NCBI GenBank assembly: GCA_963812135.1 | Contig: CAWETU010000005.1 | Location: 128,001-192,000, forward strand | Source: Vulcanimicrobiota bacterium | GTDB lineage: Bacteria > Vulcanimicrobiota > Vulcanimicrobiia > Eremiobacterales > Eremiobacteraceae | Direction: 5' to 3' | DNA: 64,000 nt | Shown here: positions 5,925 to 45,576 of the stretch, piece by piece | Position numbering within the stretch: position 1 is the stretch's first letter | Layout: each line of letters starts with the position of its first letter | Notes under the pieces: model-generated | Seen by the model: the letters and a program-made list of their open reading frames with translations, nothing else | What the model was told of the DNA's origin: nothing | Databases searched by the model: none | Translations under genes and position numbers: made by a program

Positions 5925-6368
5925 ATGAGCACAACAGCTGACGGGCGTCGACAGCTCTGGTTGCTCGCCGCTTTGGCGATCGTCGGTGTTGTGTACACCG
6001 CTATCGCTACCCACTTGTGGATCGCCAACTGGGTGTCCCTGGTCCCCATCATGGATCGATCCTTTCTCCTTCGCTTGATGCTTGGGCCATTTTGGGTTGC
6101 CATCGTATTGTTTCCGATCACCATCGTCGCGACGCTGCTGCGCCTCAACATCGCGGCTTTCTTGCTGACGCTCTTGTTCTACGCAATAATCATCAATATT
6201 GAGTACCTTTTTATGGCGCAGCCAAATTCAACCGCAATGATAGCGCAGGCAACGTTCGTTGGATGGAATTTTATCTTGCAGGTGCCGGTGTGGGGCCTTA
6301 CGGTGCTTGCGCTTAAACTGACGCGCCCGAGGCCGGAAAAGACCGGTGCTCAAGGAGCACGTTTGTGA
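5925..6368 (+). CDS. Hypothetical membrane protein (about 4 TM)
   Basis: Four hydrophobic segments; its stop overlaps the start of the next gene. Confidence 0.65.
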   Translation: MSTTADGRRQLWLLAALAIVGVVYTAIATHLWIANWVSLVPIMDRSFLLRLMLGPFWVAIVLFPITIVATLLRLNIAAFLLTLLFYAIIINIEYLFMAQPNSTAMIAQATFVGWNFILQVPVWGLTVLALKLTRPRPEKTGAQGARL

Positions 6369-7591
6369 TGCTTGTATTGGCCGGCGGTCGACTCATTGAC
6401 GGCACCGGCGCCGAACCAATCCCGAAGACATCGCTCGCGATCGAGGGCGACCGGATAAGCGCCATCTCGAACGCTGCGCCCGCGCACGACTCGAAGACGA
6501 TCGATTGCTCTGGGCTGACGCTGCTGCCTGGGTTGATCGACGCCCACGCGCACCTCGGACTCGTATTCGACTTCGACGCCGACCCAGGCGTGATGTCGCC
6601 CGCGGAGATCGCCGCGAAGACGTTCCGCAACTGCGAACTGTGTCTGGATGCCGGCTTCACCACCGTGCGCGATATGTGCGGCGTCGATGGCGGCTTGGTG
6701 CGCGCGATCGAGAGTGGCCTCGTGGCCGGGCCTCGGGTTTTCCCGTCGGGACCGGCGATCGTGCAGACCGGCGGGCACGGACACTTGACCGGTCCGTTCT
6801 GTTGCCACGATAATTCAGTCGCCATCCCGGGGTTGGTGCAGCTGATCGCGATCTGCGACGGAGCCGATGAAGTCCGTCACCAGGCCCGCTTGAACTTCCG
6901 GCGCGGCGCGACACAGCTCAAAGCTTTCATCAGCGGCGGCGTCGTGTCGAAAACGGACCGCCTCGAAGACACGCAGCTCAGCGTCGAGGAACTGCGCGCC
7001 GCGGTGGCGGAGGCGCGCGCCCGCGACACCTACGTCGCGGGTCACGCGCACAACAGTCGCGCCATCATGAACGGACTTCAAGCCGGCATGGAGTGCTTCG
7101 AACACGGCACCATGCTCGACGAAGCGACCGCCGCCGCCATGGCCAAAGCGGGCGCGCGACTCGATCCGACGCTCGCCGTCACGCGCCTCATGTCGCAATT
7201 GTGGAAAGAATGGAAGCTGCCGGAAAGCGTCGTGCCGCGGGTGCAGGGTTGCGAGCGCATGATGGGAGAGGCGATGCTGATCGCGCGCGCGGCAGGGGTG
7301 TTGATCGGTTCGGGCTCCGACCTGCTCGGCGCCGAGCAGAACCGGCGCGGCCTTGAGGTCGCGCTCCAGGCAAAGGTGCTCAGCCCGATGGAGGCGATCG
7401 TGTGCGCGACGCACTCCAATGCGCGCATCATGCACCAAGAAGACCAGCTTGGCTCGCTGTCGCAAGGCAAGCTCGCCGACGTCATCGCGGTCAAGGGCGA
7501 TCCGCTGAACGAGCCCGAGCTGTTCGACGACCCTGCGCGCATCGTGCTCGTCGTCAAGGGCGGACAAGTCGTCAAGGATCTGACGGCCTAG
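6365..7591 (+). CDS. Metal-dependent amidohydrolase (Xaa-Pro dipeptidase-like)
   Basis: PGLIDAHAH, GFTTVRD, SGGVVS, GHAH, EHG, GSD, GKLADVI. Confidence 0.9.
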   Translation: MMLVLAGGRLIDGTGAEPIPKTSLAIEGDRISAISNAAPAHDSKTIDCSGLTLLPGLIDAHAHLGLVFDFDADPGVMSPAEIAAKTFRNCELCLDAGFTTVRDMCGVDGGLVRAIESGLVAGPRVFPSGPAIVQTGGHGHLTGPFCCHDNSVAIPGLVQLIAICDGADEVRHQARLNFRRGATQLKAFISGGVVSKTDRLEDTQLSVEELRAAVAEARARDTYVAGHAHNSRAIMNGLQAGMECFEHGTMLDEATAAAMAKAGARLDPTLAVTRLMSQLWKEWKLPESVVPRVQGCERMMGEAMLIARAAGVLIGSGSDLLGAEQNRRGLEVALQAKVLSPMEAIVCATHSNARIMHQEDQLGSLSQGKLADVIAVKGDPLNEPELFDDPARIVLVVKGGQVVKDLTA

Positions 7592-8250: not shown

Positions 8251-8694
8251 ATGTCTACGCGCTCGATCCACGCTACGGCCATCCTGGGTGCTGTCGTTCT
8301 GGCAGTGGCCATAGGCCTGGCGACCCCGGCCAGCGCTGCCGGCACCATCACCTTCAGCCAGCTCGTTCCCGCGGCGCCGGCGTACGCGATGGAGCCCGTC
8401 ATCACGACGGGTAAATGCGACATCGCCGATCAGGCCGCACACATCACCCACGCATACCCGCTGGAGTGGCCGGAAGTCCCGGCTGCGCAGGGCGTTGCCA
8501 ACGCGAGCACGACCGTCCTCATCGACCTCGACTCGCGCGGCACCCTCGTCAATTCGGCCGTGGCCAACGCTTCAGGCAACGCGCTGCTCGACGACCAAGC
8601 GCTGCTCGCCGTCCGCAACTCTGGCTACGCGCCCGAGATTCTCAACTGCAACCGCTTCGCGCGGTCCTACTTCATCGACGTGATGTTCCAGTAA
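8251..8694 (+). CDS. Secreted TonB C-terminal domain protein
   Basis: Signal peptide; VLIDLDSRG..V..ASGNALLDDQALLAVRNS.YAP; strong RBS. Confidence 0.8.
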   Translation: MSTRSIHATAILGAVVLAVAIGLATPASAAGTITFSQLVPAAPAYAMEPVITTGKCDIADQAAHITHAYPLEWPEVPAAQGVANASTTVLIDLDSRGTLVNSAVANASGNALLDDQALLAVRNSGYAPEILNCNRFARSYFIDVMFQ

Positions 8695-8760
8695 TCAAGC
8701 GCTCACGGAGATGACGTCACCCATCATCGCCGCCGGCCTGCCACCGGCGGCGATGACCCT

Positions 8761-9163
8761 TCAGCGGTCAGCGAGCCGGTGCACGCTTTTGAGCCCTGAC
8801 CACGTCGCGTCGATGGCGCAGATCTTCACGTCGACTAGGCCGAGCTCGAGCACCAGACCCCGGACTTCATTTTCGCCGACATCTGTCGCGTTGCCCGACG
8901 CGCGCTTGCGCCAACAGATCCACAACGCGCCGTCGCGCGCCAACGATCGTTTCCATCGTGGAAGTCCCCGCACGAGTATGGCCATGCTTGATGCGAACGC
9001 CACGATCATCGGCATCGAGGTCGAGAGCCGCGCGGTCAACGCGCTGCCCTCGGGCAGCTGGCCGAGCGCCTTTGCAAACGCCGCCGGCGCACCGGATGTG
9101 CCGATTCGTTGGCGTGGCTTGATTCCGAGCTTTTCCGTGAGCGAGCGGTGCGAATAGCCGGCA
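8761..9163 (-). CDS. DUF3052-family protein (start uncertain)
   Basis: AGYSHRSLTEKLGIK, GALWICWRK, GLVDVKICAIDATWSGLK; no in-frame start directly before AGYS (possible 1-nt indel). Confidence 0.75.
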
Positions 9164-15275: not shown

Positions 15276-16130
15276 ATGCACTTCAAGCGTTTCAGCTGGG
15301 GCGTCGCGTTAGGGCTCCTGCTCATCCACCTAATCGCCGCAGCGGCGTTCCTTCCGATCTTCTTCTCCTGGAGCGGCGTGGCGGTTGCGCTTGTTTTGTG
15401 GTGGATGACCGGTGCCTTCGGCATCGCGTTGTGCTTCCACCGGACGCTCACGCATCGCAGCCTCACCATGCCGCGCTGGCTTGAGTACACATCGGCGTTC
15501 TTCGGCACGCTTTCGCTGCAGGGCGGTCCCATCGAGTGGGTCGCCACACATCGCCTGCATCACGCACACGCTGATGACGAGGGCGACCCGCACGACGCGC
15601 ACCGCGGTTTGATCTGGACGCACATCGATTGGCTGTACAAGCCTAACGATGCACGGCCCAACGTCGACGAGCAGCAACGGTACGCCGCCGACCTGGTCGC
15701 GCAGCCGTACTATCGATTCTTGCAGAAATACCAGCTGCTGCTGCAGATCGCCCTCGGGTTGGCCTTGTTCGCGGTGGGCGGTCTCTCGTGGGTCGTCTGG
15801 GGGATCTTCTTCCGCCTGGTGTTCGTCTACCACATCACGTGGTTCGTCAACAGCGCCGCACACAAGTACGGGTACCGCACGTTCAAGACCGACGACCTCT
15901 CGACGAATTGCTGGTGGGTCGCGATCATGACGTGGGGAGAAGGGTGGCACAACAACCATCACGCATTCCCGTTCTCAGCTCGCCATGGCCTACGCTGGTT
16001 TGAATTCGATCCGACCTGGATACAGATCAGAGTGCTCAAGGCGCTGCGGCTTGTCCGAGACATCAAGCTGCCGACGCCGGCCATGGTGGAACGGCTGACT
16101 GCGCAGCCGAGGCCGCTCCAAAACAGCTAA
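15276..16130 (+). CDS. Delta-9-type fatty acid (acyl-lipid/CoA) desaturase
   Basis: His boxes HRTLTH, HRLHH, GEGWHNNHH. Confidence 0.92.
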   Translation: MHFKRFSWGVALGLLLIHLIAAAAFLPIFFSWSGVAVALVLWWMTGAFGIALCFHRTLTHRSLTMPRWLEYTSAFFGTLSLQGGPIEWVATHRLHHAHADDEGDPHDAHRGLIWTHIDWLYKPNDARPNVDEQQRYAADLVAQPYYRFLQKYQLLLQIALGLALFAVGGLSWVVWGIFFRLVFVYHITWFVNSAAHKYGYRTFKTDDLSTNCWWVAIMTWGEGWHNNHHAFPFSARHGLRWFEFDPTWIQIRVLKALRLVRDIKLPTPAMVERLTAQPRPLQNS

Positions 16131-16162
16131 CACCTCCATCGGCGGCGCGGAGCGTCTGATCC

Positions 16163-17506
16163 GTGGCCCGCAACGATCTACGACCGCAAGCGGCAGCGCC
16201 GCCGCCCGACGCGCTGCCCGGCACTTTCGCTGCACGCGCTATCATGGAACGGCTGTTCGCCGGCGTGCGCGCGCCGATCGCAGTACGCCTTGCCGACGGC
16301 ACCTCACTGCACGCCCCCGCCGGCCCCGCTGACACCACCGTCGTCATCCGCCACCCGGGCGTCATCCGCTCGCTCTTGACGCGCACGTCCGATCTCGCAG
16401 CGGGCGAGTCTGTGGCGCGCGGAGAGATCGATGTCCTCGGTGACGCCGAAGGCGCGTTCGCCGCCTTTGACGAGGTCGCGCGCGTGCGCAGCGCCGCCGA
16501 CTGGGCTTCGATTCTCCCCGCCGCTGCCAGGTTGCCCGCACCGCCGGCGTCTGCGGCGCCGGAGCGCTCGCGCGGACCCGCTCGGCTCCGCGGCCGGCTG
16601 CATTCGCTCGACCGTGACCGCGCCGCGATCGCCTATCATTATGATGTGTCGAACGAGTTCTATGCGTTGTGGCTCGATGGCGACCTGACGTATTCATGCG
16701 CGTATTTCCGCGACGCGTCCGAGACGCTCGATGAGGCGCAACGCAACAAATACGAGCATATCTGCCGCAAGTTGCGTTTGTCGCCGGGGGAACGCCTACT
16801 CGACATCGGCTGCGGCTGGGGCGGCCTCGTGCGCTACGCGGCTCGCGAGCGCGGCGCGATCGCGGTCGGCATCACGCTGAGCCCGAAGCAGGCGGAGTAC
16901 GCGCGCGCGCGTATCGCCGCCGAAGGCGTGGCAGAACGATGCCGCATCGAGCTCGTCGACTACCGCGAGATGGCGCCGCTCGGCGCGTTTGACAAAGCGG
17001 TGAGCGTCGGGATGGTTGAACACGTCGGTGACGCGCTCTTGCCCCTCTACTTCGATGCGGTCGCAAGTACCCTCAAGCCGGGCGGTCTGTTCCTCAATCA
17101 TGGCATCGTGACGCAAAAGCCGAAGCGGCGCGGTCTCGGCGCCCGCTTCTTCCCGCACGGCTCGAAGTTCATCGAGAGATACGTCTTCCCTGACGGCGAG
17201 TTGCCTCACTTGTCGGCGATGAGCGAAGCCGCATTGGAAAGCGGCTTCGAAGTACGCGACGTCGAGAATCTGCGCGAGCATTACGCGTTGACGCTGCGCT
17301 GCTGGGTCGGCGGTCTTGAGTCGAACGAAGCGCGCGCTCGCGAGCTGGTCGGTGATGAGACCTACAACGTCTGGCGTTTCTACATGGCAGGGTCCGCGCA
17401 CGGCTTCGCCACCGGCCGCCAGGGCCTGGTCCAAATGTTGCTCGCCAAACCGATGCTGGACGGACGCGCGGCGGTGCCGCTCACGCGCGCCGACCTGTAC
17501 GCGTAG
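16163..17506 (+). CDS. cfa: Cyclopropane-fatty-acyl-phospholipid synthase family methyltransferase
   Basis: IAYHYDVSNEFY, YSCAYF, LDIGCGWG, SVGMVEHVG, YVFPDG, HYALTL. Confidence 0.88.
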   Translation: MARNDLRPQAAAPPPDALPGTFAARAIMERLFAGVRAPIAVRLADGTSLHAPAGPADTTVVIRHPGVIRSLLTRTSDLAAGESVARGEIDVLGDAEGAFAAFDEVARVRSAADWASILPAAARLPAPPASAAPERSRGPARLRGRLHSLDRDRAAIAYHYDVSNEFYALWLDGDLTYSCAYFRDASETLDEAQRNKYEHICRKLRLSPGERLLDIGCGWGGLVRYAARERGAIAVGITLSPKQAEYARARIAAEGVAERCRIELVDYREMAPLGAFDKAVSVGMVEHVGDALLPLYFDAVASTLKPGGLFLNHGIVTQKPKRRGLGARFFPHGSKFIERYVFPDGELPHLSAMSEAALESGFEVRDVENLREHYALTLRCWVGGLESNEARARELVGDETYNVWRFYMAGSAHGFATGRQGLVQMLLAKPMLDGRAAVPLTRADLYA

Positions 17507-17541
17507 GAGCGGCGGCGCGTTCGTTTGAATGCGCCCCGCAT

Positions 17542-17988
17542 ATGGTCATCGAGCGATCCTTTCACATCGCGGCACCGCCCGACGCGGTGTGGGCGTTGCT
17601 CAAAGACGTGCCGCGCCTGTTGCCGCACATCCCCGGCGCGCAGTTGATCGAAAGCATGAGCAACGGCGCGCACACCGCCGGCGTCACGCTGCATCGCGGT
17701 CCGCTGCAGGGCACCTACGATCTCGGCGTCACTGTCCAATCACTCGACGATCAGGCACGCACTGTGGTCGTGCGCATCACGGCGGCAGACGTCGCGGGTC
17801 GCGGCAGCGTTGACGCGACGGTCACGGTCGGCGTCCAGCCCGCTCCGGCGGGCTGCGAGATCTCGTTGCGCGCGGATCTCCAAGGCAGCGGTGTCACTGC
17901 GGACTTGGGCAATGGTCTTGCGAACGCGGCCGCGCCGGACTCGGCGAATGCCTTCGTCGCGAATCTCGAGCGGACGCTAGGCCGCTAG
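17542..17988 (+). CDS. SRPBCC/CoxG-like protein
   Basis: IAAPPDAVWALLKD....IPGA N-terminal motif. Confidence 0.75.
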   Translation: MVIERSFHIAAPPDAVWALLKDVPRLLPHIPGAQLIESMSNGAHTAGVTLHRGPLQGTYDLGVTVQSLDDQARTVVVRITAADVAGRGSVDATVTVGVQPAPAGCEISLRADLQGSGVTADLGNGLANAAAPDSANAFVANLERTLGR

Positions 17989-20795
17989 ACCTTCAGCTTT
18001 GCGATAAGCTCGGCGCGCGACGCCGCGCCCATCTTCGTCAGCACCGATGACACGTGCGTCTCGACGGTGCGCTCGCTCAGGACGAGCTGGTCGGCGATCG
18101 CTTTGTTCGTCTTGCCTTGTGCGAGCAGGTCGCAGATCTCGCGTTCGCGCGCGGTCAGCTCTCCCTTTGCGCGCCCGCGCTTGTTCACCGGGTTCACGAT
18201 CGCAGACGTGCGGCGCGCGTCGCGGTTCGCGCCGATCCGTTTGTAGAGCTCTAACGCTTGTTCGTGTTCACCGGCGATCTCGAGCGCGCGTGCCTCGTGG
18301 TGCGGCCACGACATCGCGTGGAACAGCGTGACGGCTTCGGCCGCGTGCGCGGCGGCGGCGGACGCATCGCCTGCTCGACTTGCTGCGAGCGCATCGAACA
18401 ACGCTAGGTTGGCCAGCGTCGAGCGCGGCGATTGGCCGGCACGCAGCGCGCCAGCGAGGAGCTTGCGAGCACGCGCCGCATCCTCGACCGCGCCGTGTGC
18501 GGCGACGGCGATGCACAGCTCGTCGGCATCGCCAAAACCTGGCGGGGCGCCGATGCGCTCGAGCGCCTCGATCGCGCTGTGCAGCAGCGAGGCGGCTTCC
18601 GCCGGTTTCCCACGCGCCAGATAGTGCTCCGCGAAAGCCGCGGTCGAGCCGATCATGATCGACGACCCCGACGCCAGGGCGAAGTCGAGCAGTTCGGGGC
18701 GCGCGCAGCGAGCGACCAACTCGTCATCTTCCATCAGTAGTCCGACGCGGATGCCGGCGTTGACCATGAACATCTGAAAACCGGGCGTTTCGACATTCGC
18801 GGCGAGCGCCTGCTTCACGAGATCGCGGGCCTGCGCGAGCTCACCAGTCACGCGCTTGGCGTGCGCCATCGCCACGAGGATCCACACCGCGGTCAGGCCG
18901 CCGATGCCCTTGTCGCGGATGATCTCACGCGCTCGCTCGAAGACTTGCGCGGCGAGATCGCTTTCGCCGGCTTGCACCATAGAGATGCCGAAACTGCCCC
19001 AACACCGCATCGCGTTGCGGAAGTCCCCGCCCTCGATCGCGAGATCGGCGGCGGCTTGCGTGTCCTCGAACGCCCGCGCGGGATTACCGAGACCTGCGTG
19101 GCTGCCGGCGCGCATGACGAGAAAGTTGATCCGCGTCTCGGTCGCGCGTGGACCGGTTGCCTGATCGGCGAGCGCCATGTGCCTCGACAGCTGCTGCGGA
19201 TCCCAGCGGAATTCAGTATAGAGCCGCATCATCTGCACGTGGGCGTCGAAGTAAACCGGATGCGCCGGATCGTCGTCGACGAGGTCAAGCGCACGCTGGG
19301 TGAAGGCGAACGCGTCTGCCGTGTGGCCGTACGCGCCGTGCATCCATGCCAGATCCAAACATGTCCTGGCTGCGCGTTCGCGGTCGCCGGCAGCTTCGTA
19401 GTATGCGAGCGCAGCGTCGGCCGCTCGCTTGGCCGGCTCTTCCAAGCCGCTCTGGTGGAACGCGCTCGCGAGCTTGAGGTTGAGCGCGGCGCGGTGAGCG
19501 TCGTCGCCGACGGTCGATGCGATAGCCCGCTCGAGGTTAGCAGCGGCGTCGCGGTACGCGAACACTTTTAGCGCGGCGTCGGCTGCCAGCTCATTGTAGC
19601 GCGCGGCACGCTCGCGCTCGTGAGCCTGCCACCAATGGTAGGCTAGCTCGGGGGTATGATCGCCTTCCGTGTGCGCTTCGAGCGCAGTGGCGATCTTCAT
19701 GTGGAGTTGACGCGCTTCGCTCGCGAGCAGTTCTTGATAGATCGCTTGGCGCGTGAGCTCGTGCTTGAATGCGAATTGCACGGAGCCATTGCTCTCTTCG
19801 ACGATCAGCGACAGTTCGATGGCGTGCTTGAGCGCCTGCGTGACCTCTTCCAAAGGAAGTCCGGCGATTTCGGCGAGGAAACCCGCCTCAAAGCGGCGCC
19901 CGATAATAGCCGCGTGCGAGATGGCGCGCCGTTCCGGCGGGTCGAGTGCCGCGAAGTGTTCGAGCACCGCTTCGCTGAGCGTCGTCGGCAAACTGCGCGG
20001 TTCGTCGTCGCCGCTCTCGATCACGGTCTTCAGCAACTCCTCGGCGAACAGCGGGTTGCCTTCCGCGCGCGCGCAGATCGCACCGATCGTCGTCTCCGAA
20101 AGTCGCGCTCGATCGGCCAGCGCGTGGAATACGAGCTCGTGCATCTCCGCGTCGCTAAGCGCCGGCAGTTCGATGCGCCGGACGCCGGCTTGGCGCGTCA
20201 GCTTGGCCGCGATCGAACGCAGCGTTTTCGCGCGCTTGAGCATATCGTTGCGATACGTCGCGATGACCAGCAGCCGAGCGCCGGCGAGGTTGGCCGCGAG
20301 ATGCTGGATGAGCTCGAGCGTCGCGCTATCAGCCCAGTGGATGTCTTCGATGACGACGACCGTCGGTTGCGCCGAGCCAAAACCGCGCAGCGCTTCGACC
20401 AGCGCGTTGAACTGCCGAAGCTTGTCGGTGACCGGCGCGGTGGCAGACGCACCAGGCGCATCGAGTTCGGGGATCAGATTGGCAAGGATCGCGCGAACCG
20501 ACGGTGCGGCTTTGAGTACCGCTGGGTCGACCTGCGCCAGCGACGAGAGCGCGGCGAGAAACGGCGCGAACGGCGATTGGACGTATTCGAGGCATTGGCC
20601 GACCGCGTAACGCGCTTCGGCTGACGGCAAATTCCCGCAGAACTCGAACGCCAGGCGGCTCTTGCCGGCTCCCGCGTCGCCGTGTAGGAGTATCAGGCTC
20701 CCCGATCCGGCCTTCGCGGCGTCATACGAGCGCTCGAGCAGCTCCAGCTGCGGCGCCCTCCCGACCAGCCTGTGCGCTTGCACGGAGTCTGCCAT
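17985..20795 (-). CDS. AAA-ATPase / helical-repeat / LuxR-HTH transcriptional regulator
   Basis: LVGR, Walker A GDAGAGKS, Walker B VIEDIHWAD, EGNPLF, C-terminal LTAREREI...GKTNKAIA...SERTVETHVSSVLTK. Confidence 0.92.
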   Translation of the reverse strand: MADSVQAHRLVGRAPQLELLERSYDAAKAGSGSLILLHGDAGAGKSRLAFEFCGNLPSAEARYAVGQCLEYVQSPFAPFLAALSSLAQVDPAVLKAAPSVRAILANLIPELDAPGASATAPVTDKLRQFNALVEALRGFGSAQPTVVVIEDIHWADSATLELIQHLAANLAGARLLVIATYRNDMLKRAKTLRSIAAKLTRQAGVRRIELPALSDAEMHELVFHALADRARLSETTIGAICARAEGNPLFAEELLKTVIESGDDEPRSLPTTLSEAVLEHFAALDPPERRAISHAAIIGRRFEAGFLAEIAGLPLEEVTQALKHAIELSLIVEESNGSVQFAFKHELTRQAIYQELLASEARQLHMKIATALEAHTEGDHTPELAYHWWQAHERERAARYNELAADAALKVFAYRDAAANLERAIASTVGDDAHRAALNLKLASAFHQSGLEEPAKRAADAALAYYEAAGDRERAARTCLDLAWMHGAYGHTADAFAFTQRALDLVDDDPAHPVYFDAHVQMMRLYTEFRWDPQQLSRHMALADQATGPRATETRINFLVMRAGSHAGLGNPARAFEDTQAAADLAIEGGDFRNAMRCWGSFGISMVQAGESDLAAQVFERAREIIRDKGIGGLTAVWILVAMAHAKRVTGELAQARDLVKQALAANVETPGFQMFMVNAGIRVGLLMEDDELVARCARPELLDFALASGSSIMIGSTAAFAEHYLARGKPAEAASLLHSAIEALERIGAPPGFGDADELCIAVAAHGAVEDAARARKLLAGALRAGQSPRSTLANLALFDALAASRAGDASAAAAHAAEAVTLFHAMSWPHHEARALEIAGEHEQALELYKRIGANRDARRTSAIVNPVNKRGRAKGELTAREREICDLLAQGKTNKAIADQLVLSERTVETHVSSVLTKMGAASRAELIAKLKV

Positions 20796-20824
20796 CCATC
20801 GCCCCCGTGTGCGCGGTTCGCTCT

Positions 20825-21622
20825 CTACGACACCTCTTCCCCGACTGCCGGCTCGGGTTTGGGAGGGATGAACAGCGTCGAGCCGGTGGTGATATCGGCC
20901 TGCTCGAGCGCCGACAGCGTCGTGCGTTCGACGGTCGGAGCGAAGCCCGAGTATTGCGACGCCTCGTAGACGATCGCCGGATGCCCCGCGCCGTAGCGCG
21001 CGCTCAAGTGCTTCGCGAGACGCGCGACGCCTTCTCGGCCGTACTCCATCTTGAAACTTGGATCGCCGGTGACCGCGACTTGCAGCAGCACGAGCGGCGC
21101 CGTCGTGCTGAATGCCCGATCGTTGAGCAGCAGATCGGATGCGTCGAAGATCTGCAGTCCGTCAGTGGCCGGATCGATGTCAAGATCAGCGAGCAGACAG
21201 TCGATCGACGACACTGCCGGCAAGAGCGCGGCGGAATACCCCTCCGCGCGCGCGCGGTCGAGCGCCGTGTGCATCGGATATGCGAAGATCCCAGGATGAC
21301 CGTAGGCGACGACGCACACCTTGGCGCCGCCGCGGACGTATGTCAAGATGCGCGCGACCATCGCTTCGTACGTGTCGATCCGGGGCTTCGCGACGTCGTA
21401 AAGCTCGCCAAGCGATTCGCTGTTCGGATTCAACTCGACGACGCTTCGCGCCGCAACAGCGTCGCCCACCAAGAACAGCACTTTGTCGGCGCACTCTATG
21501 TGCCAGCGCGCAGCAGGCGTGAGATCGCGTCCGACGTCGATGCCTGCGCCGACGATCGTAAGATCCGGCAGAGGCGGCGTGGACCAGGCTATTAGCTCGT
21601 CCCGCCGGTGCCCGGTGGCCAC
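20825..21622 (-). CDS. Borosin-type peptide alpha-N-methyltransferase (OphMA/SonM family, TP_methylase fold); start uncertain
   Basis: LTIVGAGI, ADKVLFLVGD, LY..AKPRIDTYEAM, YGHPGIF, LPAVSSIDCLLADLDIDP, LLQV; no fused core peptide. Confidence 0.88.
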   Translation of the reverse strand: MATGHRRDELIAWSTPPLPDLTIVGAGIDVGRDLTPAARWHIECADKVLFLVGDAVAARSVVELNPNSESLGELYDVAKPRIDTYEAMVARILTYVRGGAKVCVVAYGHPGIFAYPMHTALDRARAEGYSAALLPAVSSIDCLLADLDIDPATDGLQIFDASDLLLNDRAFSTTAPLVLLQVAVTGDPSFKMEYGREGVARLAKHLSARYGAGHPAIVYEASQYSGFAPTVERTTLSALEQADITTGSTLFIPPKPEPAVGEEVS

Positions 21623-21852
21623 GGCCGCGGCGGACCGTACGTGAACGGATGCATTTCGGGTGTCTTAGATTCGTGATGTTCCTTTTTGACGTGCTCTTCG
21701 ATATCTTTGACCGATCCCCACAGGAAGGCTCTGATCTGCAATTCGCTGAGCCCGTACCCCTCGAACAGTTCGAGCACTTCTCTATAGAGGCGCTCCGAGA
21801 ACTCTTTGTGTTTGGTCTTGTTGAGAAAGTCGGTGAAAGGTGTTTTGCTCAC
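21592..21852 (-). CDS. Putative split-borosin precursor peptide (86 aa; binding domain plus C-terminal core)
   Basis: AAAGGAG RBS (21860-21866) then GTG at 21852; FTDFL...YGLSELQIRAFLWG helical pattern resembles SonA; tail HHESKTPEMHPFTYGPPRPWPPGTGGTS. Confidence 0.8.
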   Translation of the reverse strand: MSKTPFTDFLNKTKHKEFSERLYREVLELFEGYGLSELQIRAFLWGSVKDIEEHVKKEHHESKTPEMHPFTYGPPRPWPPGTGGTS

Positions 21853-21991
21853 CGGAGAACTCCTTTGCCGAAAAAGCAAAATCGACGACGCTTGAGAGCT
21901 CTGCGTTGGATTAGGTGCCCGGCGTTCCCCGATTTTTTGAAATGCCCTCCAAGGGCAAGAGTGGCCTTTCCGCTCAGCGAAACCGCGCCGG

Positions 21992-24025
21992 GTGAAGACG
22001 TCGGATTTCGTTATTGTCCTCGTCGCGACGCTTGTGTTGACTGCGCATCCGCGAGCCGCAACAAGCGCGGGCGCTCCGCTCGACCTTTCCACCCTGCGCA
22101 CCTACGTGGAAATTCCAAGCCTCGCGATCTCGCCGGGCGGCAGCCGCGTCGCCGCCGTCATCCAGCGTCAGAATTTCGCGACGAACAAATATGACGAGCG
22201 CATCGAGGTCATCGATTGCGTGACCCGCTCGCGCGTGACCGTAACGCCGACGAGCCACGCCATGTCCTCGCCGGCGTGGTCCCCCGACGGCACCTCTATC
22301 GCGTACATCGCCGATGCGACGGACGGCACCTCGCAAGTATTCGCGGTCCCCGCCGGCGGCGGTACGCCGCGCCGGCTGACGCACGCTCCGCGCGGCGTTG
22401 ACTCGTTCGCGTGGCGGCCGGACGGCATGGCGATCGCATTCGTCACAACCGACGCAGCGCCGAACGCGAAAGCGATCGCATCCGGCCTCGACGCATTCGA
22501 AGCCGGCGATCAAGATTACATGAGCAGCGCGAAGCCCACACCCGCGCATCTGTGGCTGCAAACCATCGCCGGGGGCTCACCGAAGCGGCTTACGGCCGGG
22601 CAGCACAGCCTGCCGATCGGTGAGCTGATCTTTCCGTTGCCAGAGGTCGCTCCGATGCCGTTCTTCGCCTGGGCACCGGACGGCAAGTCGATCGTCTTCG
22701 CGCGCATGGACAACGCATATAACTCTGACGCGGTCGGCACTGTGACGATGGTGCTCGACGTGGCGACGGGCGCCATGCGCAAGCTCACGAGCCACACGCG
22801 GCTCGAAGCAGGCGGCCTCTATTCGCCCGACGGCATGCGCATCGCGTACGCGTACGCACGCGGCGACGATCCGATGGCACAAGTGGTCATGATGATCGCG
22901 CCTGCGAGCGGCGGCGACGGCATCGCCGCCACGCAATCGCTGGACGTCGACGCGCTCGGCGCTCGCTGGTTGAGCGGCCACCGGTTGCTGGTCAACGCGT
23001 TCCAAGGTGCGCGCTCGCGGCTATTCATCGCGGGCGAGCATGGCGACACGTCGCGCGTCGACACGGGGGCGGTCGATCCTGTGCCCGGCACACTCGACGC
23101 GACGGGGTCGGGCCACATCGCGTTCGTCGGTTCGGAACCAGAGCGCGCGACCGAAGTCTACACGATGTCGTCGCCGTTCTCGGCGCCCGTCCGCCTCACC
23201 GACTACAACGCGCCGATCAATGCCCGCGCGCGCAGCAAAGTGCAAGCCATCACGTGGAAAGGCCCGAACGGTTTCTCAGAGAGCGGCGCGCTTTTCTACC
23301 CGCCCGATTTCGATTCGGCCAAGAAGTACCCGCTTGTGCTGCAGATCCACGGCGGTCCGACCGAGTCGACGATCGCCAGCTGGCGTGACACCGACTGGCC
23401 CGGCCTGCCGCAGTACATCGCCGCGCACGGCTATCTCGTGTTCTCGCCCAACTATCGCGGGAGCGACGGCCAAGGCAACGCTTATCAGATCGCGATCTTC
23501 AACGACGCAGGCGACGGCCCCGGACGCGACGTCATGGCGGGCATCGACGCAGTGAAGCGCCTCGGCAATGTGGACGAGACGCGCATGGCGGTGACCGGTT
23601 GGTCGTATGGCGGTTATATGACCGAGTGGATGATCACGCATTACGATGTCTGGAAAGCGGCGATGGCAGGCGCTGCACCCGCCGACGCGTTTGTCGACTA
23701 CTCGACGTCGGACTACAATGTGCTCGGGCGGCTGTATTTCGGCGGCGCGCCGTACGACTCGCCGGCGTTACTGCAAGCGTATCGCGATCAATCGCCGCTG
23801 TCGTACGTCGGCCAGGTCAAGGCGGCGACGCTGCTCATGCACGACTCGGGCGACGTGCGCGTGCCGGTCGTGCATTCGTACGAGTTCTATCAGGGACTCA
23901 AGGCACATCACGTCACGGCATCCTTTGTGGTCTATCCGGTCAGCGGGCATTACCCGGCAGACCCACTGCGCTCGGAGGATATTTACCGACGATGGGTCGC
24001 CTGGCTCGATCGATACTTGAAGTGA
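21992..24025 (+). CDS. Secreted S9-family peptidase (acylaminoacyl/dipeptidyl aminopeptidase-like) with PD40 beta-propeller
   Basis: Signal peptide; WSPDG repeats; IHGGP, PNYRGS, GWSYGG, GDVRV, GH catalytic triad. Confidence 0.92.
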   Translation: MKTSDFVIVLVATLVLTAHPRAATSAGAPLDLSTLRTYVEIPSLAISPGGSRVAAVIQRQNFATNKYDERIEVIDCVTRSRVTVTPTSHAMSSPAWSPDGTSIAYIADATDGTSQVFAVPAGGGTPRRLTHAPRGVDSFAWRPDGMAIAFVTTDAAPNAKAIASGLDAFEAGDQDYMSSAKPTPAHLWLQTIAGGSPKRLTAGQHSLPIGELIFPLPEVAPMPFFAWAPDGKSIVFARMDNAYNSDAVGTVTMVLDVATGAMRKLTSHTRLEAGGLYSPDGMRIAYAYARGDDPMAQVVMMIAPASGGDGIAATQSLDVDALGARWLSGHRLLVNAFQGARSRLFIAGEHGDTSRVDTGAVDPVPGTLDATGSGHIAFVGSEPERATEVYTMSSPFSAPVRLTDYNAPINARARSKVQAITWKGPNGFSESGALFYPPDFDSAKKYPLVLQIHGGPTESTIASWRDTDWPGLPQYIAAHGYLVFSPNYRGSDGQGNAYQIAIFNDAGDGPGRDVMAGIDAVKRLGNVDETRMAVTGWSYGGYMTEWMITHYDVWKAAMAGAAPADAFVDYSTSDYNVLGRLYFGGAPYDSPALLQAYRDQSPLSYVGQVKAATLLMHDSGDVRVPVVHSYEFYQGLKAHHVTASFVVYPVSGHYPADPLRSEDIYRRWVAWLDRYLK

Positions 24026-24032
24026 GCGCACG

Positions 24033-24596
24033 ATGGCACTGACAACGCTCGATCCGAAGACCGCGCTCATCGTCATCGATCTGCAAAAAGGCGTCGTCGC
24101 TCTTCCCACAGAGCAGCCGACCGCTGAGGTGATCAAACGCACGAGCCGGCTGGCCGAAGCGTTCCGCCGCCATCGCCTTCCGGTCGTGCTCGTCCATGTC
24201 GTCGGCGGTGCACCGGGCCGCGCAGATCAGACCCGCAGCATCACCGACCGGCCGTCAGACTGGGCGGACATCGTTCCGGAGCTGAACCAACAACCCTCAG
24301 ATCATGTGGTGACGAAGCGGACGTGGGGCGCGTTCACGGATACAGACCTTGAAGCATATCTAATGAGACTTGGCGTGACGCAAGTGGTCCTCGCCGGCAT
24401 CTCCACCAGCGCCGGCGTCGAGTCGACGGCGCGCAACGCGCACGAGTTGGGGTTCAACGTCACGTTCGCAGTCGACGCGATGACCGACACGAATCCCGAC
24501 GCTCACGCCAATAGCGTCACGCGGATCTTCCCGAGGATCGGCGAAACCGGCACGACCCAGGAGATCATCGATCTCCTCGGCCGCACGCACGGTTGA
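24033..24596 (+). CDS. Isochorismatase-family hydrolase
   Basis: ALIVIDLQKG, KRTWGAF, GISTSAGVESTAR. Confidence 0.9.
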   Translation: MALTTLDPKTALIVIDLQKGVVALPTEQPTAEVIKRTSRLAEAFRRHRLPVVLVHVVGGAPGRADQTRSITDRPSDWADIVPELNQQPSDHVVTKRTWGAFTDTDLEAYLMRLGVTQVVLAGISTSAGVESTARNAHELGFNVTFAVDAMTDTNPDAHANSVTRIFPRIGETGTTQEIIDLLGRTHG

Positions 24597-24611: not shown

Positions 24612-27600
24612 CTAGTACTTCATGCTGATGAAGAACGTGAATTGGCGCGGCGGTCCGAACGCCTCGTTCTCATACGGGTGTGGGCCGTAGTTGTTCTGGA
24701 ATGGCTCGCACGCGAACGCGTTGACCACACCGGGTGGGCAGGCATTGGTGTTGACGCCTGAGCTTGGACCGTAGCCGCCAAGACCGTTCGGCACGTAGTA
24801 CGGGTTGCTACCCCCCGACGAAAGCCCCGATCCGAGGGTCGGCGGCGCTGTATAGTTACCCGTCAGGTTGAACACGCGGACGCCCACGGTGAAATTATTA
24901 GGCCCGTGACCAAGGTCTTGCGACACGCTCATGTTCACGAGCAGCACCGGCGGGCTGCGCAGCGATCCCGGGTCGTCGCCTTCGGGCGTGCCGCGCGACG
25001 CGACGATGTTGGGCGCGAGCATCGTGCCCGGGTTCGCGGGGTCTGTGAAATAGTATGCCTGTTGTGAGGTGGTCGCGGCGAGGTCCGTGTTCAGCACCTG
25101 ATATGGGATCGTCGCGGTCGGGTCGCCAGTGCAGGTCGGCACCTGGCCGCACGTGACGAAGACGAACGTCTTCTTGCCGACGCCATACGGGTAACCGTCG
25201 TTGAACGGCATGTCGACCGACGCGTGGAATCCCTGGCGCGAATCATAGGCGAGGATCAGATTCGCGGTGAGCGGCGACACGTACGACACATGGAAGAGAT
25301 GCCCCGCGGCCAGCGCCGCGTTGTTGACGCTTGGGAAGAAGTCGCTGTTGTAATTTGCAAGCGTGTTGTCGTACGTCGCGTTGAAGAAGCCCGAGAAACC
25401 GAACGTGGCCTGTTTTTGGATCGCGAACTCGACGCCCGTGTTCGAGTTGATGCCCGCGTTGATCGACCGCAACGGCCCGAACACCGGCGTACCGCTCGGG
25501 AGATTGAACAAGAAGTTGGAGTTGGTCACGACGTAGTTCGTGCCGCGCCGGTAATAGGGTGTGATCTTCAGGTCGAGGCCACGCCCGAAGTCATGTTCGT
25601 ACGAGAAATCGTAGTTGATCGCGTGCTGCGGGGTCACAGGAGTGAACGATTGAAAATTGTTCGTGTTGAGGTCTGCGAGCACTTGTTGGTAGAGGTTTGA
25701 GAAACTGTTGCAGTTGGCGTTCGCGTTCGCCGGATCGACGCCGTTCACGCAGGTCGGGCTGTACCCCGGCAGGGGGACGAAACAGCCGCTCGCAATCGTG
25801 CAGTTCTTCAGCGATGGATCGAGGCGGTATGAGTCTTGCACCGCCGAGAGCGGCACGAACTCGATGTTCGTGCCATACGACGCGCGCACGACGTCGCGCG
25901 CGGTGAGCTGGAACGCCACGGCGATGCGCGGGCTCAGCTGCGACGGCCGCGTCACGTCCGAACCGAGCGCTTGCCCAGGCAGCTCTACGATGTTTCCCGC
26001 GTCATCGGTGAAATAGCTGACGTTCTGCGCCACCGCATCTGCCGGCAGGCCGATGACCTCCAGGTCGTAGCGCAAACCGTACGTCACCGTCAGTTTGTCG
26101 TTGGGCTGCCAACGATCTTTCACGTAGACGTCGTAACGATGGATCGGCGAATCCGAGTACGATGTACTATCGGGGTAGGTGTTGAGCGGCGCGTTGGGGC
26201 CGCTCGTGGGCAGCGTCGTGCCGAGCAGGTTGTTCAGCTGCGCGTTGAGCGGGCCGATGTAACAGCCACCCACGCCGGATCCGGGATTGGACGTGGCCAG
26301 CAGTTGCGGGCAGCCGATGCCTTCGAGCGGCTCGACGATCGAGGCGAAGCTCGGAAACGCGGCCTTGAACAGACTTGAATAATACGTGTCGGTCGCGCCG
26401 AATCCGATTTCGTGGTGACTGCTGATCTGATTGTCGTAGTCGAACTGCACCCCTAGCCCGACCGTGTTCAGGTCTTGATACGTGTCGGTGAAGGATCCGA
26501 AATCGTACGGGTACGACGAGATCAGATTCTCGCTCGTGCGGAAGAGCGTCAGATCGCCGAAGCTCGACGGGCTGAACTGGCGCTTGTAGTTGAGTTTGTC
26601 GATCGTCGAGTTGAAGGTCTGTGTGTCGACGGAATTGATGAACTGGTTGACACTCGCTTGACCCGGAAACAGCGGATCGAACGTGCTCAGGGAGAGGCAC
26701 GGCGTCGGATCGCACGGGAAGCCAAGATCGTTCGTCCCAGCCTGGACATTCCCGTTGAGCGATGCATAGGGAGCCTGTGCCGGATTGATGAGCGTCTCAA
26801 ATCCCAACGTCGAGCCGCTGAGGTTGCTCAAGACCTGAATCTCGTTGCGGTTGTCGCTGCCCCAGCGATAAAAGAAATTGCCGATGATGTCGTTGAGCGT
26901 CGCGTTGTTCTGGAATCCGAGCGTGAGCGGCAACAACGTATTGGTGTCGCCATAATCAGTCGCGCCCCGTTGGCCGCCAAACGACAGATAGTAGCTGAAG
27001 CGGTTGTCGGGAGTTCCGCTGCCGTAGTCCATCGAGATCTCGTGGTCGTACTGGTGCCAGCCGAGGCGGAAGGTGGCCTGCCCTGCGCCCGGATACGAGC
27101 CGCGCTTGACGACTTCGTTGATGACGCCCGAGTTGGTGTTGCCGGTCGCGACGTCATAGCCACCGGTCGCCAACTGCACGCTGCGCGCACCGTTGAGGGT
27201 GGCAGCGTTGAGGAATTGGCCGGTGACCGGATCGGTGTTGTCGATGCCGTCGAGCTGATAGCCAAGATCGTTCTCCGCGCCCGCGCGGATCACCGGATAG
27301 CCGGCGTAGTCGGTCGTCACGCCCGGCAGCGAATTGAAGGCCTGGAACCCGTTGAGATCCTGCGGAGTACCGTTGATATCTTGCAGCGTCCGCTGGTTCA
27401 CCGTATAGCTGCTGGCTGTCGTCGCGGGTTGGACCAGCGACTGCGCGCTGCGTACGGTCACGGTGCCGAGCGATCTCGGCCCTGTCTGCAGCACGACATC
27501 GATGCGTCGCGGCTGATCTTGGGTCACGGTGACGCCCGGAACCGAGTTGGTCTGGTAACCCGCCTTGGTGAACGTTATGATGTAGGTGTCGAGCGGCAGG

Positions 27601-27818
27601 CCGATGAGCGCGTAGAATCCGTTGCCCCCGCTCACCGTCTTGGCGGTGCCGGAGGGCGCGGACGCCGAAACCTGAACACCGGCAAGCGGATGGCCCTGGG
27701 CATCGCTCGCGACGCCGTTGATGGCGCCCGTCGTGCCCGCAGTCGCGGGCGCGACGAGTGCGACGGCAGCGATGCAAAACACAAAAGCGACGAAACATAT
27801 GCGGATCTGCTGACGCAT
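24612..27818 (-). CDS. TonB-dependent receptor with N-terminal carboxypeptidase-regulatory-like domain
   Basis: Signal peptide, GTTGAING, SLPGV plug, YGLRYD, SPR, C-terminal aromatic beta-signal (FFISMKY). Confidence 0.88.
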   Translation of the reverse strand: MRQQIRICFVAFVFCIAAVALVAPATAGTTGAINGVASDAQGHPLAGVQVSASAPSGTAKTVSGGNGFYALIGLPLDTYIITFTKAGYQTNSVPGVTVTQDQPRRIDVVLQTGPRSLGTVTVRSAQSLVQPATTASSYTVNQRTLQDINGTPQDLNGFQAFNSLPGVTTDYAGYPVIRAGAENDLGYQLDGIDNTDPVTGQFLNAATLNGARSVQLATGGYDVATGNTNSGVINEVVKRGSYPGAGQATFRLGWHQYDHEISMDYGSGTPDNRFSYYLSFGGQRGATDYGDTNTLLPLTLGFQNNATLNDIIGNFFYRWGSDNRNEIQVLSNLSGSTLGFETLINPAQAPYASLNGNVQAGTNDLGFPCDPTPCLSLSTFDPLFPGQASVNQFINSVDTQTFNSTIDKLNYKRQFSPSSFGDLTLFRTSENLISSYPYDFGSFTDTYQDLNTVGLGVQFDYDNQISSHHEIGFGATDTYYSSLFKAAFPSFASIVEPLEGIGCPQLLATSNPGSGVGGCYIGPLNAQLNNLLGTTLPTSGPNAPLNTYPDSTSYSDSPIHRYDVYVKDRWQPNDKLTVTYGLRYDLEVIGLPADAVAQNVSYFTDDAGNIVELPGQALGSDVTRPSQLSPRIAVAFQLTARDVVRASYGTNIEFVPLSAVQDSYRLDPSLKNCTIASGCFVPLPGYSPTCVNGVDPANANANCNSFSNLYQQVLADLNTNNFQSFTPVTPQHAINYDFSYEHDFGRGLDLKITPYYRRGTNYVVTNSNFLFNLPSGTPVFGPLRSINAGINSNTGVEFAIQKQATFGFSGFFNATYDNTLANYNSDFFPSVNNAALAAGHLFHVSYVSPLTANLILAYDSRQGFHASVDMPFNDGYPYGVGKKTFVFVTCGQVPTCTGDPTATIPYQVLNTDLAATTSQQAYYFTDPANPGTMLAPNIVASRGTPEGDDPGSLRSPPVLLVNMSVSQDLGHGPNNFTVGVRVFNLTGNYTAPPTLGSGLSSGGSNPYYVPNGLGGYGPSSGVNTNACPPGVVNAFACEPFQNNYGPHPYENEAFGPPRQFTFFISMKY

Positions 27819-28048
27819 GCTGCGGCTCCCCCTACGAACAGGCGTGTGCCGCCAAGTTGACCACGCTGTCATGCGCTTCCTTGGCACGCGCGCGGCGTCG
27901 ACGCGATGCCGTAACATCGCTCTCATATTTCGATGATGGATTTTATCCATTCGGCGAGTCGCTGTTCCAGAGCCACCCGCTCCGAATGTTATGCGTTGAC
28001 CCCTGGCCTCGCCATCGAGGCGAACCGCCGCGTCGAGACTAACCTTCG

Positions 28049-28711
28049 GTGGTGAGCGATACACGTGCGCCCTTGAAACACGCGGATCCCGATCATACGG
28101 TCCGGCGCCTTGAGGCGTTCAGCGACATCGTCATCGCGTTCACACTCTCGGAGCTCGCGTTCACCTTGCAGATCCCGCACAGCACGCGCGATCTATTCGC
28201 ACACCCCGCCCATGTCTTGGTGTTTCTAGGGAGTTTCGTTTTCGTCTGCTCGTTCTGGTGGCTGCACCATCAGGTGTTCGCGCGCTTCTTCTATCCCGAC
28301 ACGCCTGGCATTCTGCTCAACTTCGCGTTTCTCGCCGCGGTGGTATTCGTCGCATATTCGATGCTGCTCGTGACGAAGGTCGGCGATCTGCAGGCGCTTG
28401 GGGTCTACGCGCTGAGTCTTGGAAGCGCGTATGTCCTCATCTCCATCCTTTTTGTGAAGGGAGCGCGCGATCCGCGCCTGGTTATCGATGAGGAGGCGCG
28501 CAGGTCGGGGATGGAGCGGGCGTTGCGGCTCGGCGTCGGGGGCACCGTGATGCTGGCCTCGTTCGCGCTCGTGTTGCTTGGCCGAACACAGGAGGAAGTC
28601 ACTGGCCTGTGGCTGCTCTCTGTCGCGCTGATCATCTTCTTAGCCGCGCGAGACCGAATCGCTCGTCGCCGGCGCGAGCGAGCGATGGTCCAACCGACGA
28701 CCGGTGCGTAG
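28049..28711 (+). CDS. TMEM175-family (DUF1211) potassium channel
   Basis: RLEAFSDIVIAF and WWLHH; about 6 TM. Confidence 0.85.
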   Translation: MVSDTRAPLKHADPDHTVRRLEAFSDIVIAFTLSELAFTLQIPHSTRDLFAHPAHVLVFLGSFVFVCSFWWLHHQVFARFFYPDTPGILLNFAFLAAVVFVAYSMLLVTKVGDLQALGVYALSLGSAYVLISILFVKGARDPRLVIDEEARRSGMERALRLGVGGTVMLASFALVLLGRTQEEVTGLWLLSVALIIFLAARDRIARRRRERAMVQPTTGA

Positions 28712-45000: not shown

Positions 45001-45169
45001 TGCCTCTGCCCGCAAGCCCTTTGATTGCGTTCGTGGTTTTGCCAAGCTGGCGGCAGCGGCAGGTGAGGCCGGACTACCCGAGCTTCACGCCCGAAGTGAA
45101 CGTCTCCGTGAGATCTATGCCCGCCGCCACGCGAGCGCCGTTGCAGAACTAGATAAGGTGCTCGCGTGA
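42095..45169 (+). CDS. SARP/BTAD plus AAA-ATPase transcriptional regulator
   Basis: KARALLVYL, RERLMELLWP, YRGDFL, PYEE, FVGR, GEPGIGKS, IDD, GNPLY. Confidence 0.9.
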   Translation: MPACSLETLGTFALRVDGRLAPAPSTQKARALLVYLVMHRGSDVARERLMELLWPDADPERGRESLRTALHSIRRSLRGADADADALLTANKSVVRWTPETKLDIDRFAELADHSDPASLSEALAVYRGDFLEGDYENWTVIERERLSARYERLLARALKSANDPEIARRLIERNPYEEEPYIALIDAELAAGRRAVAQRLIAQCRGALAELGERPSAEFERRYADLERAVAKPADSFRLPFVGREHELADIQRHLDDAAQARGSLTIVSGEPGIGKSTLLAHAVESAIRRGVRVISVQCLTGDPRPFGPWQGVFEGLTSRSLPEFVKLAGRDVASEVADSIVGALDKPAMLVIDDVQYARDAALEVTIHVMRLASATHAVVAATRPEGIARLNAALGELRRTELAVGALTRDDLVAGLQRLAIADDDPLLDALYGRTDGNPLYVISFLDELVKSGTLRRHGHRWEIDLKRPLELQLPKSLTRSIENRLRSRGDVAAGVACALALDADADIDDVGNALGLDETSRLDALDDLLALGVVVEQSSGPQLSFIHDVVRDVAALLLSAARRTRVHRAFADSLARSPARNAALRQARHLEAAGDFMGAAGLYKDAAIEAMELRAVSDASARCDDGLRMLAKADRSEPVELVAAELHRVKAENLVRNGRYKDALAPVVESVRMARAAGDERALIKSLNLRSTINMELPQIDDMLRDADEVATIADRVGDHASAVNAAVKRSWAFVMLEDGDQAIAQGEKALALADRIGSDRDRMVAADNLIRAASLWWHFKTAAAASTVAIQIGPRVGWNAEVANLSAAARLWLLVGRLEVARGMLEQARSHPQSRLRSGDVLLSMPLHELRVDFVLATVLTELGRLDEALEVAERCARHPLTASEPDIDNTLRMALLDILWRRNQAADRKRLPDLLRILTDVRTTTGVLFGGNSPEIIRGIVSVRLGVAQAPELLSKAIDHSESASARKPFDCVRGFAKLAAAAGEAGLPELHARSERLREIYARRHASAVAELDKVLA

Positions 45170-45545: not shown

Positions 45546-45576
45546 GGCGACCTGCTCTGTAGCACAAGTTGTCGCA

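Follow-up and report, generated by a model that had tools for sequence, protein, structure and literature searches.

A putative split borosin locus with a co-inherited AAA_16/LuxR regulator in an uncultured Vulcanimicrobiota bacterium

The DNA analysed here, which we refer to as the window, is a 64,000-nucleotide stretch of contig CAWETU010000005.1 (positions 128,001 to 192,000; assembly GCA_963812135.1) from a Vulcanimicrobiota bacterium of the family Eremiobacteraceae, and all coordinates for this stretch are numbered from its first base. It contains a co-oriented trio of minus-strand genes that runs from an 86-aa open reading frame (ORF), the putative precursor of a backbone N-methylated peptide of the borosin class, through a 265-aa methyltransferase to a 936-aa AAA_16/LuxR regulator. 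The features of this cassette and of its divergent neighbour are as follows.

21860..21866, minus strand: Shine-Dalgarno sequence AAAGGAG, 7 nt ahead of the precursor GTG
21595..21852, minus strand: putative precursor gene, 86 aa, GTG start at 21852, stop at 21592-21594
21667..21852, minus strand: leader, residues 1-62, predicted to be a helical, SonA-like borosin binding domain (BBD)
21595..21666, minus strand: putative core, residues 63-86, predicted disordered; rich in Pro, Trp and Gly
20825..21622, minus strand: predicted stand-alone borosin-type alpha-N-methyltransferase, 265 aa, GTG start at 21622
17985..20795, minus strand: LuxR-type ATP-binding (STAND) regulator, 936 aa, with AAA_16 at residues 9-178, a weak TPR match at 562-627 and a GerE helix-turn-helix at 880-932
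21548..21746, strand unreadable: RNA-library contig, 199 nt with 1 mismatch, covering the 3' part of the precursor gene and the first methyltransferase codons
21992..24025, plus strand: S9 peptidase with PD40 propeller, 677 aa; divergent neighbour of doubtful role

The original prediction placed the 86-aa ORF directly ahead of, and overlapping, the enzyme gene, and this is what the coordinates give: the methyltransferase GTG lies inside the 3' end of the precursor gene with an overlap of 31 nt. The AAAGGAG Shine-Dalgarno block is retained in four of four aligned congeners. The methyltransferase and regulator genes are on the same strand and 29 nt apart, and a scan of 17700-22300 finds no terminator-like or promoter site, using a sigma-70 consensus that may not suit this phylum. 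On the 6-kb stretch there is a single short contig from one soil metatranscriptome library, and it lies across the precursor/enzyme junction. The contig records presence in an RNA library, where DNA carry-over is possible, and the run was picked up using the same stretch, so that we take it as a weak hint of expression and read nothing into the bare remainder of the stretch. Because of the 29-nt gap, the lack of a terminator-like site and the RNA contig over the junction, we read the three genes as one operon. The G+C content is 0.635-0.664 across the region and does not depart from that of the window. A 139-bp divergent intergenic region separates the precursor gene from the S9 peptidase gene; alignment of this intergenic region in five congeners reveals no conserved inverted repeat that could serve as a candidate regulator box, and a GCCCT..AGGGC palindrome present in the window was set aside as the other congeners do not share it.

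The identity of the 265-aa enzyme as a borosin-type N-methyltransferase, rather than a tetrapyrrole or rRNA methylase, is supported by its sequence matches. Comparison with all PDB sequences gives 25 distinct sequences at E ≤ 0.01, and all 25 are borosin N-methyltransferases (OphMA, dbOphMA, SonM and MroMA). The closest are SonM (7ltc) and OphMA (5n0o), each with an E value of 1.4e-42 and 149 bits, followed by dbOphMA (E 1.4e-41) and MroMA (E 1.7e-25), and the SonM alignment spans residues 20-255. The two NCBIfam models that match, YabN (36 bits) and precorrin-3B methylase (16.6 bits), score far below their thresholds; the position of YabN as the best of these agrees with the published placement of YabN-like domains as the nearest outgroup of the borosin methyltransferases (Imani preprint). 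The assignment to the OphMA/SonM enzymes made in the original prediction is thus borne out by the difference between 149 bits and 36 or 16.6 bits. The protein is a single domain with no fused binding domain or core, and there is no second copy of it in its own genome (one match among six candidates).

The active-site residues lead to the same assignment. HMMER alignment pairs Y75, R81, Y85 and Y107 with SonM Y58, R67, Y71 and Y93, which the available text of PMC8429565 describes as important by mutagenesis, and these four are retained in 27, 26, 30 and 30 of 30 homologues, respectively. The motif blocks YGHPG (residues 107-111) and DCLLAD (residues 141-146) are both present, and the Y, G, H, P, D, C and final D of these blocks are invariant in all 30 homologues; YGHP and DCLFAD blocks underlie the antiSMASH borosin rule (Imani preprint). 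The motifs quoted in the original prediction can all be read in the translation of the ORF at 20825-21622, including VGAGI, ADKV, LYDVAKPRIDTYEAM, YGHPGIF and LPAVSSIDCLLADLDIDP. A contrary view, in which the enzyme would be a common tetrapyrrole methylase of the CobA/CbiL type or an rRNA methylase of the RsmI type and the upstream ORF would be spurious, would accommodate the sole Pfam match, to TP_methylase (residues 21-221, E 2.4e-18, 67 bits), and the labels given to related proteins by public pipelines (precorrin methylase, siroheme synthase or YabN-like). We consider it extremely improbable, since the 25 PDB matches include no such methylase, precorrin-3B methylase reaches only 16.6 bits, the protein has the residues and motif blocks specific to borosin enzymes, and conservation extends to the upstream ORF and its ribosome-binding site.

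Conservation of the small ORF was followed through 61 related genomes, of which 21 contain a methyltransferase homologue (19 of 59 if two unpublished genomes are left aside). The two unpublished genomes, G010 and G016 (loci L020 and L017), are included in the counts and a third, G013, in the table of regulator paralogues; the conclusions do not rest on any of the three. A small same-strand ORF lies directly upstream of the methyltransferase at 17 of 20 relatives' loci (16 of 18 without L017 and L020). These ORFs end at or just within the enzyme gene, have a Shine-Dalgarno site, and share the N-terminal pattern PF.DFL.KL..D...GL[ST]..Q..AL. Among the remaining loci, one is cut by a contig end and shows the C-terminal part of the ORF, and in G001 the ORF follows the enzyme. 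Close homologues of the window precursor are few, with three among 5.8 billion proteins (at 86, 60 and 59% identity), and one of these bears the name Candidatus Eremiobacteraceae.

The family of upstream ORFs can be connected to SonA, the precursor of a characterised split borosin. A profile of 19 upstream ORFs (A2) matches the SonA chains with an E value of 1.7e-8 over profile positions 7-54, in keeping with the earlier proposal of a split-borosin cluster, and three of the 19 ORFs have a Pfam match to LigA, which is the PDB label of SonA. TALE proteins ranked over SonA in the A2 search and were rejected, as their scores are sums of weak 'GLTPEQV.A' matches with no single stretch passing. As a specificity control, A2 was run over 7,624 open frames around methyltransferases of other lineages (the best 80 loci of at least 587) and gave 67 matches in 64 of the 80 loci, from many phyla. 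The match lies directly upstream on the same strand at 38 loci and in the enzyme's own frame at 7; in the rest it is divergent within 400 nt (6 loci), 0.6-3.5 kb downstream (11 loci) or elsewhere (4 loci). An AlphaFold2 (AF2) model of the precursor built on a 19-row alignment (mean pLDDT 77) has predicted helices at residues 5-12, 16-33, 37-45 and 48-62; pLDDT is about 85 in the leader and falls to 41-68 in the tail, which appears disordered. Membership of the 86-aa ORF in a family matching the SonA borosin binding domain is supported by these profile comparisons. A complex prediction with the methyltransferase (30-row alignment) and the precursor (8-row alignment), run without controls, scored 0.00 and 0.01 where the mark is 0.32; it speaks neither for nor against binding.

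Beyond the leader, residues 63-86 have the sequence KTPEMHPFTYGPPRPWPPGTGGTS, and within a subfamily of eight members Y72, G73, P74, P77, W78 and G84 are invariant, the conserved "PRP..WP.G" tail being specific to this locus. A profile search of the whole library of 1.84 billion representatives returns 17 proteins with E ≤ 0.001, with near-identical leaders ('MSKTPF[TL]DFL.K'). Their tails vary but abound in Trp, Pro and Gly, and in most of them a Trp with Pro or Gly beside it persists close to the C-terminus. Such a combination of conserved leader and variable putative core is the usual pattern of precursor peptides. A 1681-aa Pro-rich protein (P0050) with 20 matches to the tail was dismissed as low complexity. 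The highly divergent precursor of G001 also has 'PRPRLPFPWPPGGG'. At that locus (L119, 5507-6214, minus strand) the order is enzyme, precursor, regulator, and the precursor of approximately 150 aa contains three 'GGHVQH'-like repeats as well as 'PRPRLPFPWPPGGG'; possibly this is a multi-core form within the family.

The G004 locus (L118) has two BBD-type precursor genes (6097-6468 and 8604-8966, both on the minus strand) that have strongly basic N-terminal extensions and an opposite-strand 634-aa ORF between them. A second BBD gene 2 kb away in G004 could suggest that the small ORF is an accessory subunit consisting of a binding domain only, with the true substrate encoded elsewhere, and the available sections of the 2024 RODEO preprint (section 6) give 733 methyltransferases that lack an identifiable precursor and consider distal precursors. 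We find this very improbable for the window, where the helical domain of the ORF is followed by a 24-residue tail that includes positions invariant across the subfamily, where no other BBD ORF is seen beside the enzyme, and given that Type IV systems keep the BBD and core on one peptide.

The third gene of the cassette encodes a protein with Pfam matches to AAA_16 (residues 9-178, E 4.3e-27) and GerE/LuxR (880-932, E 1.8e-19), and a TPR_12 match (E 8.3e-5, 23.1 bits) that is under the 30.1 cut-off. GerE-domain structures match residues 872-934, and outside the helix-turn-helix there is no PDB sequence match. The N-terminal AAA_16 P-loop, the long and presumably helical-repeat middle and the C-terminal GerE/LuxR helix-turn-helix resemble those of LAL (large ATP-binding LuxR) or MalT-type STAND regulators, to which we presume it belongs. 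In family f1, to which this locus belongs, the methyltransferase is followed straight away by an orthologue (N-terminal half 42-74% identical) at 15 of 15 loci (13 of 13 without L017 and L020); in the sister family this holds at none of five loci. At loci L022-L025 of the sister family (f2) an ORF of at least 470 aa replaces the LuxR regulator after the methyltransferase, and this ORF has no Pfam domain save one weak PDZ match. Genes of this general type are numerous, with 16 AAA_16 matches in the 2.79 Mb of its own genome and many regulator paralogues in the class at 29-37% identity; the best matches are still those beside the enzyme. The methyltransferase and regulator trees have three well-supported shallow groups in common, and the regulator is inherited with the pair. 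Most likely it controls, or responds to, the system. No report of a LuxR-type regulator tied to a borosin pair was found in the literature searched. Elsewhere the window encodes a second STAND-type regulator of 1024 aa (42095-45169, plus strand), in which AAA_16 is combined with a Trans_reg_C winged helix at the N-terminus; a gene for a PD40-repeat protein (45487-46680, plus strand) comes next.

The cassette occupies a fixed site in the genus, with the S9 peptidase and TonB-type receptor genes on one side and the CoxG, CMAS and desaturase genes on the other. On the latter side (15276-17988, plus strand) are genes for a fatty-acid desaturase, a CMAS-type cyclopropane-fatty-acid synthase and a CoxG/SRPBCC protein, which lie downstream of the regulator and convergent with it and whose position is kept in congeners; the Imani preprint reports Polyketide_cyc (PF03364) from about 13% of split borosin clusters. 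On the other side a 1150-aa protein with a CarboxypepD_reg domain and a TonB-dependent beta-barrel (24612-28064, minus strand) is encoded beside the S9 peptidase and an isochorismatase gene (24033-24596).

Prolyl oligopeptidase OphP matures omphalotin, and the S9 peptidase could by the same token be a maturation protease that cuts the Pro-rich tail. It shares the divergent intergenic region with the precursor, lies beside the cassette in five of six congeners, and belongs to a family that includes prolyl-specific peptidases; its second-best NCBIfam match is the lasso-peptide isopeptidase Atxe2 (141.6 bits against a cut-off of 400), the best being Dpp5 (197 bits against a cut-off of 900). However, the association is confined to genus g1. 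The gene is not adjacent in the eight published loci of the family beyond the genus, and in G007 and G008 its homologues are on other contigs. Its Pfam matches are to Peptidase_S9 and a PD40/DPPIV_N-type propeller with none to the S9A N-terminal domain, and its N-terminus, judged by eye, resembles a signal peptide whereas the precursor has none. The peptidase thus appears to have neither the architecture of an OphP-type S9A enzyme nor a conserved co-occurrence with the methyltransferase. It has also changed less than the cassette and forms a pair with the receptor whose synteny and 72-82% identity are kept across the genus; this suggests a peptide-uptake unit apart from the borosin cassette. 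A role for this peptidase in borosin maturation is accordingly doubtful in our view.

Comparison with the congeners shows how differently the cassette and its flanks have changed. In G001-G004 the enzyme is 46-52% identical to that of the window, the regulator 48-50% and the precursor 21-34%, with the flanking genes (S9 peptidase, receptor and desaturase) at 72-84%; in G005 and G006 the enzyme and regulator have identities similar to those of the flanks. The cassette is therefore far more diverged than its surroundings in four of six congeners. We do not claim exchange of the cassette between genera, as five of seven congeners form one clade in the methyltransferase tree (95/92); G004 joins this clade at 80/84 and the position of G001 is not resolved.

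This joint divergence bears on a reading in which the borosin is real and the repeat domain of the STAND regulator would bind its methylated tail, cleaved or uncleaved, as a ligand, making the cassette a self-contained peptide-sensing switch rather than the source of a secreted antibiotic-like metabolite. It would account for a regulator that follows the methyltransferase at every family locus, for the agreement of the two trees in their shallow groups, and for a precursor, enzyme and regulator that together outpace the flanks. A regulator-like AAA_16 match also lies within 4 kb at 13 of the 80 other-lineage methyltransferase loci (a raw count without background correction, several of the loci being kin), which is consistent with the published co-occurrence of GGDEF signalling genes with 56% of split borosin clusters (Imani preprint). 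Pfam scans of 11 of the AAA_16 neighbour proteins give the architectures cyclase-AAA_16-TPR (L041, L062, L065 and L105), BTAD-cyclase-AAA_16 (L115), protein kinase-AAA_16 (L043 and L079), AAA_16-TPR alone (L095 and the archaeal L081) and AAA_16-GerE (L047, two genes), so that the outputs are cyclase, protein kinase, LuxR or none. The lineages with AAA_16-linked borosin loci are actinobacterial, cyanobacterial, archaeal and Vulcanimicrobiota. In addition, no antibiotic activity was found for the product of SonM and SonA, shewanellamide A, according to the available portion of PMC10549244. The TPR call that would mark the sensing domain is weak and below its cut-off, though, AAA_16 domains are common, many of the 13 loci are kin, and regulator-like genes occur without the pair in two genomes, G020 and G021; moreover, regulators adjoining biosynthetic genes usually merely control those genes. 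A switch of this kind is in our estimation unlikely at this locus. Its general form, in which borosin pairs would be the ligand-making arm of STAND switches whose repeat domain senses the methylated tail, with a LuxR output here and cyclase or kinase outputs in the actinobacterial and cyanobacterial loci, is one that we put forward very tentatively and rather doubt. If it were true, the joint fast divergence at a fixed site would represent diversifying signal and receptor specificities, for which pherotypes are a parallel.

Considering the three genes together, we think it probable, with good confidence, that they constitute a precursor, a backbone-methylating enzyme and a co-inherited regulator. 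In this scheme the precursor would dock on the stand-alone methyltransferase through its helical N-terminal borosin binding domain, and the disordered C-terminal tail (about residues 63-86) would be threaded into the active site. The enzyme would then transfer methyl groups from S-adenosylmethionine to the backbone amide nitrogens of the tail, at one or more positions; by analogy with SonM, Y75 and Y85 with R81 may stabilise the deprotonated amide and Y107 may hold the cofactor. Because seven prolines are already present in the last 24 residues, methylation between them would leave hardly any NH groups in the peptide backbone. Proteolytic release of this peptide would presumably follow, and a link between it and the regulator may exist.

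Several observations weigh against this reading. As a single sequence the window precursor has no match in Pfam, NCBIfam or the PDB, and the profile of its subfamily (A3, the eight closest ORFs) reaches SonA only marginally, at E values of 0.025-0.035, although the SonA variants are the top seven of ten matches. The modelled leader has four predicted helices and SonA is described as a five-helix bundle (in the available text of PMC8429565). Foldseek comparison of the precursor model lists SonA chains in 13 of 17 rows, all with E ≥ 1.8, and the VIA fold comparison gives a best Z of 2.2 with 6 of 23 chains at Z ≥ 2; neither is significant. The tail appears unlike the characterised borosin cores in the literature searched, and being so rich in proline it would leave few methylatable amides. 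Conservation with the pair does not extend to any protease or exporter among the loci compared. Finally, orthologue-like copies of the regulator (38-41% identity) are found with no methyltransferase or BBD ORF nearby, within the 6.5-8 kb fetched, in G021 (L116, 2420-5200) and G020 (L117, 1031-3807). The G020 gene appears to be split over two frames.

If the precursor, enzyme and regulator act together as we propose, the locus adds a compact and testable borosin pair from an uncultured soil phylum. Backbone N-methylation protects peptides from proteases and lets them pass through membranes. The predicted Pro/Trp-rich core, for which no counterpart is seen among the characterised cores in the literature searched, would probe the substrate rules of the enzyme. 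Shewanellamide A is the only bacterial borosin product identified, as stated in the available portion of PMC10549244, and the purpose of bacterial borosins is posed as a question in the conclusions of the Imani preprint. The strict STAND-LuxR linkage, together with AAA_16 neighbours fused to cyclases and kinases, offers the hypothesis that bacterial borosins may serve in signalling.

The locus has every feature of a Type IV split borosin that can be judged from sequence, and we assign it to that type because the enzyme matches SonM and OphMA and the precursor-family profile matches SonA. SonM and SonA form the Type IV split borosin system of Shewanella oneidensis MR-1, whose product is shewanellamide A, and the son cluster comprises SonM, SonA, a GGDEF protein and an efflux pump (as given in the available portion of PMC10549244). 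In common with SonM and SonA (PDB 7LTC, 7LTE and others), there is a stand-alone enzyme of ~260 aa in which the four functional residues are retained, a short precursor encoded separately with a predicted helical binding domain at its N-terminus and a putative core at its C-terminus, adjacent precursor and enzyme genes, and a cluster with no protease. Unlike SonA, the precursor here cannot be recognised by single-sequence search, and its tail is rich in Pro, Trp and Gly whereas SonA has DSSYQSYLVISHGNGD (same portion of PMC10549244). To go by how its closest homologues are named, the host is an uncultured Eremiobacterota-like soil lineage as opposed to Shewanella, and the partner is an AAA_16-TPR-LuxR regulator in place of the GGDEF protein and efflux pump of son (PMC10549244, in the same portion). 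A gene context unlike that of son had been foreseen with two elements, and it stands for the AAA_16-LuxR regulator; the S9 peptidase does not belong in it, as it is no conserved member beyond the genus.

OphMA, the omphalotin precursor (Type I fused; PDB 5N0O and others), has an equally similar methyltransferase domain and the same catalytic motif set, but in it enzyme, binding domain and core form one self-methylating polypeptide, whereas here they are divided between two genes. As in split borosins linked to cyclases or kinases, or to GGDEF proteins (Imani preprint), the Type IV pair has a signal-transduction gene as its companion; unlike in those systems, the output here is a DNA-binding LuxR helix-turn-helix encoded in the same operon, right after the enzyme. 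No description of borosins in Eremiobacterota was found in the literature searched, where the one paper to mention both deals with another enzyme family. The class as such is already well known, with >1,600 pathways (Imani preprint), 2,699 methyltransferases and 3,064 predicted precursors (in the available sections of the 2024 RODEO preprint, section 6), and eleven borosin types, 0 to X, with a new Type XI (in the available text of PMC11395268). What is unusual at this locus is the sequence of the tail, the regulator as a partner and the fast divergence of the cassette.

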